This document shows positions 2,858 to 28,300 of a DNA stretch of 33,719 nucleotides, in pieces; the first letter of the stretch is position 1, and the number at the start of each line of letters is the position of its first letter. The DNA comes from Escherichia coli. GTDB taxonomy: Bacteria; Pseudomonadota; Gammaproteobacteria; Enterobacterales; Enterobacteriaceae. Location: assembly GCF_003334315.1 (NCBI RefSeq), contig NZ_QOWR01000051.1. One strand, written 5' to 3'. The notes below the pieces were generated by a model that searched no databases, was not told the DNA's origin, and was given only the letters and a program-made list of their open reading frames with translations. A program made the position numbers and the translations under genes.

Positions 2858-3649
2858 ATGGCAACGCCAGTGAAGAAGTGGTTATTGCGCGTTGCCCCCT
2901 GGTTTTTACCGGTGGGCATCGTGGCGGTGTGGCAACTGGCCTCCTCGGTTGGCTGGCTGTCGACGCGTATTTTGCCTTCACCGGAAGGAGTGGTGACGGC
3001 GTTCTGGACGCTCTCCGCCAGCGGCGAACTGTGGCAGCATCTGGCGATCAGCTCCTGGCGGGCGCTGATTGGCTTTTCAATTGGCGGATCGCTGGGGTTG
3101 ATTTTGGGACTGATTAGCGGGCTATCTCGCTGGGGAGAACGGCTGCTGGATACCTCAATTCAGATGTTGCGCAACGTGCCGCATCTGGCGCTGATCCCGC
3201 TGGTGATTTTGTGGTTTGGCATTGATGAATCCGCAAAAATCTTTCTGGTGGCGCTCGGTACGCTATTCCCCATTTATATCAACACCTGGCATGGCATCCG
3301 TAATATCGATCGCGGGTTGGTGGAGATGGCGCGTAGCTATGGATTATCCGGCATACCGCTGTTTATCCATGTGATCCTGCCTGGTGCCCTGCCCTCAATT
3401 ATGGTCGGCGTGCGTTTTGCGTTGGGCCTGATGTGGCTGACGCTGATTGTTGCCGAAACCATTTCTGCCAATTCAGGCATTGGTTATCTGGCGATGAATG
3501 CGCGGGAGTTTTTGCAAACGGACGTGGTGGTAGTCGCTATTATTCTTTACGCCCTGCTCGGCAAACTGGCTGACGTCAGCGCGCAGCTGTTAGAGCGCCT
3601 CTGGTTGCGCTGGAACCCGGCTTATCATTTGAAGGAGGCCACGGTATGA
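2858..3649 (+). CDS. ssuC: Aliphatic sulfonate ABC transporter permease
   Basis: ORF track starts at 2813; the ATG at 2858 preceded by aaggaag gives 263 aa starting [10 protein letters not shown], a hydrophobic multi-helix permease. Confidence 0.9.
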
Positions 3650-22067: not shown

Positions 22068-23370
22068 GCGCCTGTACCTTGGCTCCGTAATCATTAATCG
22101 GCTGCCATTTCGCTGGCAGTCCGGTGAAATCTGCTTGCGCTACGCCAAGACGTACCGCCTGATCAATAACAATACGCGCAACGTCAAAGTGACGTGCACG
22201 CGGATACTGTGACAGATATTCGCGTACCACCAGACCAAGATCCAGCGGCACTTGTCTGGTTTTGTACACGGCAAGTTGTTCTTCGATGATCGCCGCCAGC
22301 TGTTCGCGGATCTCGTTAAACTCTTCGTATTCCAGATCCTCAGGAAGTTCCCCAGTCACTTCTTCATCGCGCAGTGCCATCTCTTCGTCACGCATATCCA
22401 GCAGACGATCGGCATTGGCATAAGTTAGCGCCCACGGCTCATCAAAATAGGTTTGTACCGACTGACGTAACCGCTGAGCAAAGACGCGGTTTTTATCCAT
22501 ATCGATCGCGGTACGAATAAATTTGTGTACGTGGCGGTCGTAGCCAATCCACAAGTCGATGGATTGCTGGCCCCAACTGATAATACGATCGAGTTTGCTC
22601 TGCAGATCGAACACCAGACGATCGACGAAATGCAGATCGTCATGGGTCATCGTCGCATCCTGAATGCGCAACAGATTAGCCTGCAATTTGTCGCCTGCCG
22701 CTTCCAGCGTATCCTGCAATTCACGCAGCGTTCCGGAAGTTTCCGAAAGCAACAATTCACAGCTGGAAATCGCCGCCCGCCAGTCTTTGTTCAGCAACTG
22801 GGCGATATCGTCCTTCACCTGCTGCTGCTGTTCGTCCATCAGACGTTGCGTCAGGTCGATACTGTCGAAAATTTCTGCTACCGAATATTTCAGTGGCGCA
22901 TAGACATTACGGTGCCAGTGAAATTCATCACCGCCCTCTTCGGCGGCATCTGCTGCGCGTTTGAGCTCACCCGCCACAATCGACAACTGCATAGAAAGAC
23001 GCAGCGTAGAAAACTCGCGCTGACGGATGTAGTAGTCAGTAATGCCGATGCCGAGCGGCGTCAGACGGTAAATTGCGTTCCCTTCCGCCTGCTCGCTGGT
23101 AAAGCGGTTCAGCAGACGTTGACGCACCATGTCGTTGATCGCGTTATTGGCGCGCACGCCGATGGTTTCGCTGGTTTGCTCAAACGCATCACTCACATGG
23201 CGGAATGCATCCACCAGCTCGCCTTCACTCATCTCACCATCCAGACGCTCGCCGTTCAGCGTGGCAACCGCCAGCAGAAAAGAGAGTCGGTCTACCGGCA
23301 GCGAGATGGAGAAGTCATTTTTTCTGGCCCAGGCAACCAGTTCGGGGACTGTCTGGGAAAATTCACTCAT
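22048..23370 (-). CDS. mukF: Chromosome partition protein MukF (kleisin)
   Basis: 440 aa starting [22 protein letters not shown]...; overlaps the mukE start by about 20 bp. Confidence 0.95.
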
Positions 23371-24152
23371 ACTTTATCCTTGCTCTGCGGTTTGCGCGCG
23401 GTGACATGAATATAACGCCCCAGGGTAATATACGGTTCCTGACGGCAATAACGCGTTTCTAATTCAAGTAATGCTTCATAGCAGTCGCGCTGCTGGTGTT
23501 TCTCGCGCAGATAATCATGAAACACGCGAACGCCTGTCTTACCCATAATTTGCCAACCAGCTTCTTCCAGCCACAGATAAACCTGCGCCGGGTCGCGTGG
23601 ATAATCTGGCGAAAGCGTCCGTTTTTTCTTTTTCGGCATTCCCGCCTGCACGTAATCAAAATTCCCGGCGACCATGTTATGCATCAACAAACCATGCGCA
23701 TTGTAGAACATTAACGACAACACGCCGCCTGGACGCAACACTGACCACAGGGTCTGCAATACGCTGCGGGGATCAGCCACCCACTCGAGCACCGCATGGA
23801 ACAATATCAGATCAACGGGCGTTTCCAAATGCGAAGCAACATCCTGAGCGGCGCAATGTATAAATTGCATGTTGTCGCTCACACCTTTTGCTTCTGCCGC
23901 CTGTTTTGCGCGGTCGATCATCTGCGCAGAAAGATCGCATAAAATGACCTGATGCCCACGCTCGGCCATTTTGATTGCGGTCTGCCCTTCTCCACCGCCA
24001 GCATCCAGCACACGCAGTTTTTGCGGGCCCATTTCCGCCAGCACGCGATCGAGATCCTGCCACAGAATAGCCTGTCGAAGCTGCCCTTTGGTGGTGCCGT
24101 AAATGTTACGGGAAAACTTTTCCGCAATATCATCAAAATTGCGATCCTGCAT
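23367..24152 (-). CDS. smtA: SAM-dependent methyltransferase SmtA/CmoM
   Basis: SAM-binding motif VLDAGGGEG; ORF track starts at 24164 (265 aa), the expected 261-aa protein starts MQDRNFDD at 24152; ATGA overlap with the mukF start. Confidence 0.88.
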
Positions 24153-24287
24153 TGCTTTCTCCACCGGTTGGCTAAGACGTTTTCTGATAAAGACGCTATT
24201 TTGTCACAGCCACGGCGAGAATGAACCCGTCTGGTGTAATATCGCTGGCGATCCCTTGCTATATGGTTAAAAAAGGAACCAGAAAGG

Positions 24288-25067
24288 ATGCTTTTTACAC
24301 TGAAAAAAGTGATTGGCAATATGTTGCTGCCACTTCCGCTGATGTTGTTGATTATTGGCGCTGGCCTGGCGCTGCTGTGGTTTAGCCGTTTTCAAAAAAC
24401 CGGGAAGATTTTTATTAGCATTGGGTGGCTGGCGCTCTTGTTATTGAGTTTGCAACCGGTAGCCGACCGCCTGCTGCGTCCCATCGAAAGCACCTATCCG
24501 ACATGGAATAATTCGCAAAAAGTGGACTATATCGTGGTGCTCGGAGGTGGTTATACCTGGAACCCGCAGTGGGCACCGAGCTCTAATTTAATCAATAACA
24601 GTCTGCCACGCCTGAATGAAGGTATTCGCTTATGGCGCGAAAATCCGGGATCAAAACTGATCTTCACGGGAGGCGTAGCAAAAACCAATACGGTGAGTAC
24701 AGCGGAAGTAGGTGCCAGAGTTGCGCAATCGCTGGGCGTGCCGCGCGAGCAAATTATCACCCTGGATTTGCCAAAAGATACCGAAGAAGAAGCTGCAGCA
24801 GTGAAACAGGCGATTGGTGACGCCCCTTTCCTGCTGGTGACCTCCGCATCACATCTGCCGCGGGCGATGATCTTTTTTCAGCAGGAAGGGTTAAATCCGC
24901 TACCAGCCCCGGCGAATCAGTTGGCCATCGACTCGCCGCTTAACCCGTGGGAACGGGCAATCCCTTCTCCGGTCTGGTTGATGCATAGCGATCGTGTTGG
25001 CTATGAAACGCTTGGCCGTATCTGGCAGTGGCTAAAAGGTTCGTCAGGCGAGCCACGGCAAGAGTGA
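24288..25067 (+). CDS. elyC: Envelope biogenesis factor ElyC (YcbC, DUF218)
   Basis: 259 aa with N-terminal transmembrane segments; matches E. coli ElyC. Confidence 0.88.
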   Translation: MLFTLKKVIGNMLLPLPLMLLIIGAGLALLWFSRFQKTGKIFISIGWLALLLLSLQPVADRLLRPIESTYPTWNNSQKVDYIVVLGGGYTWNPQWAPSSNLINNSLPRLNEGIRLWRENPGSKLIFTGGVAKTNTVSTAEVGARVAQSLGVPREQIITLDLPKDTEEEAAAVKQAIGDAPFLLVTSASHLPRAMIFFQQEGLNPLPAPANQLAIDSPLNPWERAIPSPVWLMHSDRVGYETLGRIWQWLKGSSGEPRQE

Positions 25068-25937
25068 TTTTGATGCCAGATCGAAGTTGCGCCGACTAAA
25101 TCGTCCGGTATTAACCAGTTGCGCAACTTCATCCCATAACACATACAACCAACGCCGCCAGATGAACGACTCCGCCACTGGCGCGCGTTGCAGGTAACTC
25201 CAGAGCAAATCTTCCGCCAGAGAATTATCCATTAGTCGGAACAGTTCGTATTCTCGCGGTGCCCAAAGCATTAGTCCCGGCCCGACCATCGCCAGTAACT
25301 GATCGCTGCGCGAATCTTTCAACATGCTGCGTAAACAGAAGTTACCGTGAATCAGCACACAATTGTCGTTAAAGCCTTCAAATAATGCCGGGAGACATTC
25401 GCGAGTGCGAAACAGGATCCGCTTATCCTGCATCGTCAGACCGGTGTTATTGAACTGATTGAGCGTGGTCCATAGCACTTCAACATGTTGCCGGTACCAT
25501 GAGGGCCAGAAATTTTCCTGAGTATTGTCGACCGCGCCGACGCAACCGCGACTGTCCTGACGGTGCCAGGCCAGTAAGGCTTCAACGATTTGGTCTTTGA
25601 GTTGTTCCCAGCGTTCTGGTGTTCGGGCTGGTGCCTCCACCGAAACACCACGCATCCGCTCCAGTAGCAGGACATCGGGGCCGGGGTGTTCTTCATGCGT
25701 CATCACACCATAAATAGTCGGCATACGGACAGTCCCACTTCTTGCCAGCATGGTGGTTTTCCATGCCAGTTGTCGGGCTTTTCCGGGCGTACTAAAGCTT
25801 CTTGCCATTAACGGCATTGGGTTTCCCTGGCTGTCATACAAAGCCCACAACGCCGTATCCGCTTTTTCATTGACGCACTCAATACGACTGAGTTTTTCGC
25901 CCAGTAAATGGCTTAATTCGGCACGCAGCTGTTCCAT
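25044..25937 (-). CDS. ycbJ: Uncharacterised protein YcbJ (kinase-like fold)
   Basis: 297 aa starting MEQLRAELSHLLGEKLSRIE; 3' end overlaps the elyC 3' end by 24 bp in convergent orientation. Confidence 0.85.
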   Translation of the reverse strand: MEQLRAELSHLLGEKLSRIECVNEKADTALWALYDSQGNPMPLMARSFSTPGKARQLAWKTTMLARSGTVRMPTIYGVMTHEEHPGPDVLLLERMRGVSVEAPARTPERWEQLKDQIVEALLAWHRQDSRGCVGAVDNTQENFWPSWYRQHVEVLWTTLNQFNNTGLTMQDKRILFRTRECLPALFEGFNDNCVLIHGNFCLRSMLKDSRSDQLLAMVGPGLMLWAPREYELFRLMDNSLAEDLLWSYLQRAPVAESFIWRRWLYVLWDEVAQLVNTGRFSRRNFDLASKSLLPWLA

Positions 25938-26090
25938 TCAGATTACCCTCATAAAAGCTACTGCTTTCATAATGAGCGCCAATATAAAAGATGTCACCTG
26001 AATGAGATCAATTGTTGAAAAGAAAAATTGAGGAAAATCGTAACGGTACGACACTCCTCCCAAAATTGGCTGAAGTGTCGTGAAGTGAAA

Positions 26091-27016
<926 letters not shown>

Positions 27017-27067
27017 AGTTCCTCCAGATGGATCGGGTTATGAATGCATAAATCTTATCATAATCAT

Positions 27068-28300
27068 TTATGCGACGGGGTCTATTTCCCAGCCGGTGAG
27101 GCAATCAGTAAAGAGGCCTTGCGGGCAGCATCCTAATGTCACCCGCGTTGCCTGCTGCCAGTTAGCGAAATCAGTAATCGCCTGACGTAGCCCTTTTTGC
27201 AGCGTTGTCGTTGGTTTAATACCTTCCTGTAACCACAGAGAGATAACTTCAAGGATGCCTGTCTGGCGATGCATTTTGGCATCCATTCGCCCAACTAATT
27301 GCCCACGATGTAATAACGGCAGAACAAAATAGCCATACTGGCGTTTCGGCGCTGGGGTATAGCACTCCAGCCGGTAGCTAAAATCAAAAAGCTGCTCTGC
27401 GCGTTTGCGATCCCAGACAACAGGATCAAAAGGCGAAAGTACCGCGCTGTGCGTTGCAGTGAGCTTTCCGGCCAGCGCTCGCTCGAGTAGCGGCAGCAAA
27501 TCATCATGCAGCCAAAGATTGCCCAATTTTTCAACATGCACAGCAATGATTTGCTGCTGTTCAGCCCTCGCTTCGCGCCACGCCGCCAGTGCCGGACGTT
27601 TCAGCCGATAGTAATCTGCCAGCCACTGTTCGCGGAATATTCCCAGGCTACGCGCACTGTTATCCAGCATGATGATTTCTGCTTCTGTTTGCGAAACGAG
27701 ATCGCGCTCATCATCCCAGTCAGGCATGACACGGTGGGTTAAATCATAAACGCGCTGGAAGTTGCGCCGTTCAATCACCATCACCTTTCCGGCAGTAAAT
27801 AAACCTTCCAGATGCCGTTTATGCGGCTTCCATTCCCACCAGCCGCTTGCACCTTTACGAGGATGCTCAAAATCGGCTGAACGTACCGGCCCCTTATCAT
27901 GAATATGCTGAATTAACTGTGCAATTTCCGCCTCATGTTCCTGCATCCAGGCGTCTTTGTATTTCCAGCCCATTTTTTCAGGTGCCAGCATGCGGTGGCG
28001 AATAAGACGAAAGTCGCTACGCGGCATAAAGCAGGCTTCATGCGCCCAGTATTCCATTAATTCGCCACGCGCCAGAGACTCATCCAGCCACTGGGCAGGA
28101 TAATTTCCCAGACGACTGAAAAGCACCAGATATGGACTACGGGCAACAATATTGATGGTATCGATTTGCAGCAAGGACATGCGGGAGATCGTTGCCGGAA
28201 TATCCTCCAACGACGCTCGACGGCGGGGTTTGTTTAACAGGCCTTGTGCGGCAAGGTGAAGATTACGCGCATCAGCAAGGGAGAGGTGCGGCAGCGACAT
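27068..28300 (-). CDS. ycaQ: Winged-helix protein YcaQ (AlkZ-like putative DNA glycosylase)
   Basis: 410-aa ORF; sequence and length match E. coli YcaQ from memory. Confidence 0.85.
   Translation of the reverse strand: MSLPHLSLADARNLHLAAQGLLNKPRRRASLEDIPATISRMSLLQIDTINIVARSPYLVLFSRLGNYPAQWLDESLARGELMEYWAHEACFMPRSDFRLIRHRMLAPEKMGWKYKDAWMQEHEAEIAQLIQHIHDKGPVRSADFEHPRKGASGWWEWKPHKRHLEGLFTAGKVMVIERRNFQRVYDLTHRVMPDWDDERDLVSQTEAEIIMLDNSARSLGIFREQWLADYYRLKRPALAAWREARAEQQQIIAVHVEKLGNLWLHDDLLPLLERALAGKLTATHSAVLSPFDPVVWDRKRAEQLFDFSYRLECYTPAPKRQYGYFVLPLLHRGQLVGRMDAKMHRQTGILEVISLWLQEGIKPTTTLQKGLRQAITDFANWQQATRVTLGCCPQGLFTDCLTGWEIDPVA

Follow-up and report, generated by a model that had tools for sequence, protein, structure and literature searches.

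Two genes on opposite strands that end inside one another raise the question whether the shared DNA serves a regulatory purpose, reflects the way in which the genes came to lie together, or exists in the annotation alone. The pair elyC and ycbJ poses this question in a stretch of 33,719 nucleotides from Escherichia coli (contig NZ_QOWR01000051.1), which is called the window here; unless a locus is named, all positions refer to it. The gene order in the neighbourhood is mukF-cmoM / elyC / ycbJ-kdsB-ycaR-ycaQ. According to annotation, elyC encodes the envelope biogenesis factor ElyC (DUF218) and ycbJ a YcbJ family phosphotransferase with an APH-like fold. The domain PF02698, corresponding to DUF218, was found on ElyC orthologues, and PF01636 on YcbJ.

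Geometry and distribution of the overlap

In the list of open reading frames, elyC occupies positions 24288-25067 on the plus strand (259 aa, stop codon TGA at 25065-25067) and ycbJ positions 25044-25937 on the minus strand (297 aa, stop codon TGA at 25046-25044). The coding sequences overlap tail to tail by 24 bp (25044-25067, both strands), and their frames are aligned codon against codon. In the elyC frame the overlap reads TCA GGC GAG CCA CGG CAA GAG TGA, while the ycbJ frame gives the exact reverse complement, TCA CTC TTG CCG TGG CTC GCC TGA. Either TGA stop is a TCA serine codon of the partner: the elyC stop (25065-25067, plus strand) is the complement of the ycbJ codon for Ser291, and the ycbJ stop (25044-25046, minus strand) that of the elyC codon for Ser253. 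ElyC residues 253-259 (SGEPRQE) are encoded within ycbJ. RefSeq/PGAP gives the same overlap (positions 2345-2368 of the E. coli locus L001), such that open reading frames, sequence and RefSeq all bear out the initial annotation, which had reported 3' ends of elyC (+) and ycbJ (-) shared over 24 bp at 25044-25067. Both reading frames represent conserved full-length proteins, with YcbJ homologues of 297 aa at 81-99% identity and ElyC homologues of 258-259 aa.

Within E. coli, the 1.9-kb region and the 84-bp junction were found in 5,426 of 5,426 complete genomes. The junction is at least 99% identical in 2,130 of these 5,426 genomes and at least 95% identical in all but two. Both genes are annotated across the junction in seven of the eight E. 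coli matches listed. In the eighth, strain R9 (NZ_CP107164.1, locus L090 from position 2568 onward), ycbJ is interrupted by a prophage, and R9 is the single genome among the 5,426 in which the two halves of the locus lie approximately 38 kb apart. The break corresponds to window positions ~25075-25081, in the last ycbJ codons and 8-14 nt past the elyC stop, and leaves elyC intact. Prophage genes on the elyC-side flank code for a recombinase-family protein and for tail-fibre and tail proteins. Judging from this prophage, the 3' end of ycbJ may be a phage attachment site.

Moving to the family level, the ycbJ locus was taken from 80 Enterobacteriaceae species representatives, giving 78 loci that hold both genes, and the stops of both genes were placed for each locus by tblastn and frame extension. 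The overlap is kept in 74 of these 78 species. Its length is 24 bp in 68 loci, 21 bp in five (L020, L059, L060, L067, and L073) and 36 bp in one (L057), and the genes are separated by 35-117 bp in four (L006, L014, L018, and L029). In L057, from Enterobacter sp. kpr-6, GGC stands in place of the ycbJ TGA and the frame continues for four codons to a TAA (locus positions 3392-3406), which yields the overlap of 36 bp. Locus L066 of Leclercia adecarboxylata NCTC13032 has a broken elyC frame downstream of locus position 3394, with a 123-aa product from the aligned start and a 3' end that still aligns; the cause is either a frameshift, which would make elyC a pseudogene, or a fault in the assembly.

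The loci with separated genes all come from the Citrobacter freundii complex, and their gaps measure 117 bp (L006), 35 bp (L014), 93 bp (L018), and 58 bp (L029). The insert occupies locus positions 1364-1480 in L006 and lies just after 3394 in the other three. It carries GCCGGATGGCGGCGTGAGCGTCTTATCCGGCCTAC together with an inverted partner and, by the REP consensus, resembles a REP/BIME element. ElyC of these four species has 254 aa, ends in ...WQWLKG(S/A/R)EH and lacks the tail. With this REP/BIME-like insert, the overlap has been reversed naturally in these Citrobacter species.

Homologues beyond the family were taken as representatives of 50%-identity clusters, and their contigs were looked up. 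A Buttiauxella/Dryocola-like relative (73% identity to E. coli YcbJ) reveals an overlap of 21 bp. In a Plesiomonas-like relative (42% identity) ycbJ is convergent with a DUF218 gene across a 30-bp spacer, and a more distant homologue (33% identity) is convergent across 107 bp; elyC is absent from the corresponding site of homologue L084 (44% identity). Since distant YcbJ homologues are convergent with spacers of 30-107 bp, the convergent pairing is older than the overlap. The Plesiomonas-like spacer contains a hairpin, AATAACCGC-CAGCGCA-GCGGTTATT, with a 9-bp stem and A/T flanks on both sides, and this arrangement is likely the ancestral state. The YcbJ family as such is narrow: a search of 1.84 billion cluster representatives gave 201 matches at E <= 1e-3, and full-length distant members are few. 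Throughout, including loci L082-L087, ycbJ adjoins kdsB and often the LPS genes lpxK and msbA.

Codon constraint in the shared segment

The YcbJ C-terminus KSLLPWLA is conserved, and a related ending, L-I-P-W-L-E, is present in the Plesiomonas-like YcbJ homologue. The conserved core of ElyC ends with ...GRIWQWLKG at approximately residue 251, and the tail behind it varies with the synonymous third positions of ycbJ, taking E/K/Q/D, G/R, and Q/E/K at its variable sites across the 78 species. This pattern points to the YcbJ C-terminus as the constrained partner and to the last seven residues of ElyC as mostly a passenger.

The position at which ElyC stops is a different matter. The elyC stop is supplied on the opposite strand by the ycbJ codon for Ser291, for which 72 of 76 species use TCA. 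The entropy of this codon, 0.34 bit, compares with a median of 1.18 among 206 conserved degenerate codons and is the fourth lowest. The five exceptions to TCA are all compensated: L059, L060, and L067 gain a TAA or TAG one codon earlier, and L006 and L018 are among the loci whose genes lie apart. On the level of sequence, this frozen and compensated codon is direct evidence of selection on the ElyC stop position.

At the other end of the overlap, 76 of 77 species terminate ycbJ with TGA. Codon 297 of ycbJ has C as its third base in an equal number of species (76 of 77), despite variation among A, S, V, and T at this residue. This C keeps a Gly in ElyC in most species, and the ElyC tail is thus not entirely free. 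Further synonymous sites of low entropy in or beside the overlap are Lys290 (25068-25070), Leu292 (25062-25064), and Pro294. In 74 of 77 species Lys290 is encoded by AAA, such that the elyC TGA is directly followed by T (TGAT context), and in 66 of 77 species Pro294 has CCC, a codon that is usually rare.

Transcript ends and antisense transcription

The initial annotation had noted that no terminator lies between the two stops, that the transcripts must be antisense to each other over their ends, and that transcriptional interference is possible. The first of these observations holds. With zero intergenic bases there is no bidirectional intrinsic terminator between the stops, and a scan for a consensus hairpin followed by a T-tract gave no intrinsic terminator at or near 25044-25067. 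The only terminator match nearby, on the minus strand (25170-25154), was dismissed, as it lies inside ycbJ and upstream of the ycbJ stop. Rfam revealed no family in 23300-27100 and none in the four Citrobacter loci. The second observation is a matter of geometry: since there is no DNA between the stops, mRNAs that carry their own stop codon are complementary over at least 24 nt.

Two stem-loops are predicted in the RNA that follows the elyC stop. The proximal one (25079-25133, plus strand; dG -20.9 kcal/mol, z -4.55) contains a perfect 10-bp inverted repeat (25083-25092 / 25121-25130) and has no U tract. The distal one is a GC-rich hairpin within ycbJ (25144-25197), located 77-130 nt past the elyC stop, which can form on either strand and likewise has no U tract. 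An RNA comprising both (25068-25200) folds with a dG of -44.3 and z of -4.29. The proximal hairpin was rejected as a conserved elyC terminator, as its core is Escherichia-specific and unpaired in most others of 75 species compared. The distal hairpin is stable in most of the 75 Enterobacteriaceae species, with 81% of cells paired, a median dG of approximately -20 kcal/mol and a median z of -2.4, and it reveals a GC/AU exchange at one pair (helix 5). Its pairing shows no strand asymmetry of G-U versus A-C pairs (81 vs 80% paired). It sits on the invariant WRRWL/QRAPV codons, and structural and protein constraint are therefore inseparable at 25144-25197. For the whole two-hairpin structure, 73.8% of cells are paired, compared with 73.4% in column shuffles. 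The distal hairpin is possibly a pause site or a structure protecting the 3' end. Past the ycbJ stop, the RNA (antisense of elyC) is no more stable when folded than shuffled sequences are (z approximately -0.6), and there is no candidate for a ycbJ 3' structure.

Transcription across the junction was assessed with data of others, i.e., gene-level values for a few growth conditions, taken from published supplements; MG1655 coordinates were converted by window = 997679 - coordinate. ExcludonFinder (2025) counts ycbJ-elyC as one of 165 convergent excludons that occur in at least 50% of 58 MG1655 transcriptomes (PMC12288877). In Table S1c of Huang et al. 2020 (PMC7373196), wild-type sense/antisense values are 36.4/5.4 RPM for ycbJ and 20.5/7.1 RPM for elyC (listed as ycbC), compared with 106/1.7 RPM for kdsB and 91.6/2.4 RPM for smtA/cmoM. 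These published values correspond to an antisense/sense ratio of 15-35% on ycbJ and elyC versus 2-3% on the neighbours. Both genes are weakly expressed. The excludon listing (PMC12288877) and the raised antisense RPM (PMC7373196) are thus in agreement with the antisense overlap expected from the initial annotation.

No consequence of this overlap is visible in the same supplement. In its gene-level values, neither ycbJ nor elyC gains sense or antisense RPM in the RNase III mutants rnc-14 and rnc-38 (PMC7373196). Double-stranded RNA captured by p19 amounts to 8-19 RPM on ycbJ/elyC versus 15-81 RPM on kdsB, again as gene-level values (PMC7373196), and is close to that of several other genes listed there and far below that of cmoM (PMC7373196). 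With regard to interference, the overlapping transcription required for it exists, but the rnc data reveal no rise in RPM and p19 dsRNA is not enriched, i.e., no effect was seen; regulation by interference is unlikely to be strong. A separate observation concerns smtA/cmoM (23367-24164), whose p19 dsRNA is unusually high (141-593 RPM vs 8-80 RPM for the neighbours; PMC7373196). A Term-seq 3' end lies inside the cmoM reading frame at window position 24041 (PMC7815308). Both observations are suggestive of a strong antisense pair within cmoM.

Mapped 3' ends and Rho-dependent regions are available from Adams et al. 2021. In their Supplementary file 1 (PMC7815308), a Term-seq 3' end of kdsB lies at MG1655 971644, i.e., window position 26035 on the minus strand and upstream of ycbJ. 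Two passages of this list, which appear sorted by coordinate, hold no curated Term-seq 3' end between window positions 26035 and 24041 (PMC7815308). Supplementary file 2 gives a Rho termination region termed "internal ycbJ" on the minus strand of the window, with its peak at window position ~25559 (MG1655 972120, plus strand there; PMC7815308). Upstream/downstream reads in 800-nt windows are 135/18 without BCM and 192/140 with BCM, and the Rho score is 5.47 (p = 5e-12) in LB-grown cells (PMC7815308). The elyC strand has no reported Rho region (PMC7815308). Because the Rho-dependent region is located inside ycbJ, part of the ycbJ-strand transcription stops before the overlap. The initial annotation had named a transcript ending ahead of the overlap as an outcome that would contradict it; for the ycbJ strand, the region at ~25559 (PMC7815308) shows this in part. 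The supplements of SMRT-Cappable-seq make no mention of elyC/ycbJ. Taken together, the data of others support overlapping transcription that is real and extends beyond 24 bp, occurs in low amount, is partly limited by Rho and has no visible RNase III dependence.

Origin of the overlap and its significance

The elyC/ycbJ overlap is real and neither a chance feature nor an effect of annotation, because 74 of the 78 Enterobacteriaceae species retain it and measurable constraint acts on the synonymous sites forming the stops. As the probable account of it, we favour an ancient tail-to-tail overlap of two real genes, of which interference and double-stranded RNA are a weak side effect rather than a dedicated switch. 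Most likely, the convergent genes were once separated by a short spacer, which disappeared in an ancestor of the Enterobacteriaceae. ElyC would have lost its own stop and come to read through the antisense of the last eight codons of ycbJ, codon against codon, ending at the first in-frame stop available, the complement of the Ser291 TCA. The YcbJ C-terminus would be the selected partner and the seven extra residues of ElyC a tolerated, largely unconstrained appendage; selection would keep only the position of the ElyC stop, such that no long extension arises. Both transcripts presumably terminate inside the partner gene after release of the ribosome, and the data of others suggest that they end there diffusely and partly via Rho, not at an intrinsic terminator. 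Ends of this kind would make antisense RNA measurable over both genes. At low expression, interference and dsRNA would then be a weak by-product and not a regulatory switch. Three observations speak against this account: the exact family-wide overlap length could reflect selection for the overlap itself, the third-base C of codon 297 (76 of 77 species) indicates some constraint on the ElyC tail, and the hairpin at 25144-25197, stable in most species, could be a functional RNA element.

These observations lead to the competing readings. The overlap might be a selected excludon, conserved because polymerase collisions and/or RNase III cleavage of dsRNA render ElyC and YcbJ mutually antagonistic. 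The pair is listed as convergent in the MG1655 "excludome" (PMC12288877), its antisense/sense ratio of 15-35% exceeds the 2-3% of its neighbours, the overlap length is fixed family-wide, and no terminator insulates elyC from ycbJ. On the other hand, there is no sense or antisense RPM increase in rnc-14 or rnc-38, and p19 dsRNA of 8-19 RPM is at or below the kdsB level and far below that of cmoM (PMC7373196). Rho already reduces the ycbJ-strand flux within ycbJ (PMC7815308). The genes are apart in four Citrobacter species carrying the REP/BIME-like insert, distant relatives have spacers, expression of both genes is low, and protein and stop-codon constraint alone explain the codon pattern. On balance, we consider a selected excludon unlikely. 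Less probable still is that a functional RNA structure past the overlap is the conserved feature, i.e., a protecting or pausing hairpin that sets the elyC mRNA end in a Rho-dependent manner and without a U tract. The two stable stem-loops after the elyC stop (dG -44.3, z -4.29) would fit this reading, as would the distal stem-loop kept in most species (median z -2.4, 81% of cells paired) and the finding of Dar and Sorek that Rho-dependent transcripts end just past such stem-loops. Its difficulties are that the core of the proximal hairpin is Escherichia-specific, that the distal hairpin lies on the invariant WRRWL/QRAPV codons with equal pairing on both strands, and that paired cells barely exceed column shuffles (73.8 vs 73.4%); moreover, the two coordinate-sorted passages of PMC7815308 contain no Term-seq 3' end here, and Rfam gave no match.

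Equally doubtful is a combination of both ideas, in which the fixed 24-bp overlap and the distal hairpin form a selected antisense module that couples or opposes expression of ElyC and of the kinase-like YcbJ, which is encoded beside the LPS genes lpxK and kdsB. If true, ElyC and YcbJ would be a functional pair in envelope homeostasis. By far the least credible reading is an artefact of annotation or sequencing, in which one gene ends earlier or one reading frame is not a gene. Many long annotated overlaps in prokaryotes are indeed misannotations, but 24 bp is far below the length of 60 bp at which artefacts were found (PMC2478687). Furthermore, each reading frame runs to its first in-frame stop and leaves no choice, both proteins carry Pfam domains and are conserved over their full length, all 5,426 E. 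coli genomes have the junction, and the overlap recurs in 74 of 78 species.

The preferred reading, a tail-to-tail overlap of two real genes, places the pair among known systems. In E. coli, 75 of 663 overlapping gene pairs are convergent (Huvet & Stumpf 2014, PMC4161906). Pallejà et al. noted that genuine overlaps of greater length are tolerated in the convergent orientation alone and arise by 3' extension after loss of a stop (PMC2478687), and conserved convergent overlapping pairs go back to Rogozin et al. 2002, as cited in PMC2478687. The pair elyC/ycbJ has all features of this class: two real genes, mutual in-frame stops (at codons 291 and 253) and occurrence in at least two genomes. As in other members, two conserved genes share 3' DNA in many genomes, the overlap was apparently made by movement of a stop codon, and the protein constraint of one partner dominates. 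Nothing fundamental distinguishes elyC/ycbJ from the class; its length is fixed at 24 bp across the family. The codon-aligned arrangement corresponds to phase 0 of 10.1101/2025.11.07.687268, where it is not named as the commonest phase. With convergent excludons (PMC12288877) the pair shares opposite-strand neighbours and overlapping transcripts, and it is itself in the published list; the defining outcome, mutually exclusive expression with RNase III-dependent decay, is a difference, as rnc and p19 data for elyC/ycbJ give it no support. Insulated convergent pairs with a bidirectional intrinsic terminator have the same gene orientation, and the Plesiomonas-like relative has a hairpin in its spacer. 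In contrast, E. coli elyC/ycbJ has neither a spacer nor a hairpin with U-tract, and termination on the ycbJ strand is at least partly Rho-dependent and occurs inside coding sequence (PMC7815308).

The overlap is already annotated and published; a 2025 preprint states it and says that deletion of ycbJ inactivates elyC. New in this study are the depth of its conservation in the phylogeny, the constraint seen at the level of codons and the variants in which the genes are naturally uncoupled. A practical point concerns the Keio mutants, whose deletions begin with codon 2 and reach to the seventh-last codon. The design of Baba et al. 2006 reportedly leaves six codons and the stop, 21 nt in total. 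From this design and the coordinates, 25044-25064 would remain after deletion of ycbJ and 25047-25067 after deletion of elyC, so that the elyC stop (25065-25067) should be lost in the first case and the ycbJ stop (25044-25046) in the second. Each deletion would drop the stop of the partner, and thus alter the C-terminus of the neighbour and confound the phenotypes of the single mutants. This is a practical warning for phenotypes assigned to ycbJ or elyC on the basis of Keio single mutants.

The overlap is of small biological importance. E. coli has about 75 convergent CDS overlaps of which this is one, and the pair is a single entry among the 165 convergent excludons listed. It is nevertheless a clean and datable example of how an overlap forms and is maintained, and in Citrobacter a REP/BIME-like insertion reverses the arrangement. 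In this example the C-terminus of one protein dictates the sequence, the tail of the other rides along, and a normally uncommon TCA codon is frozen as the stop of the partner.
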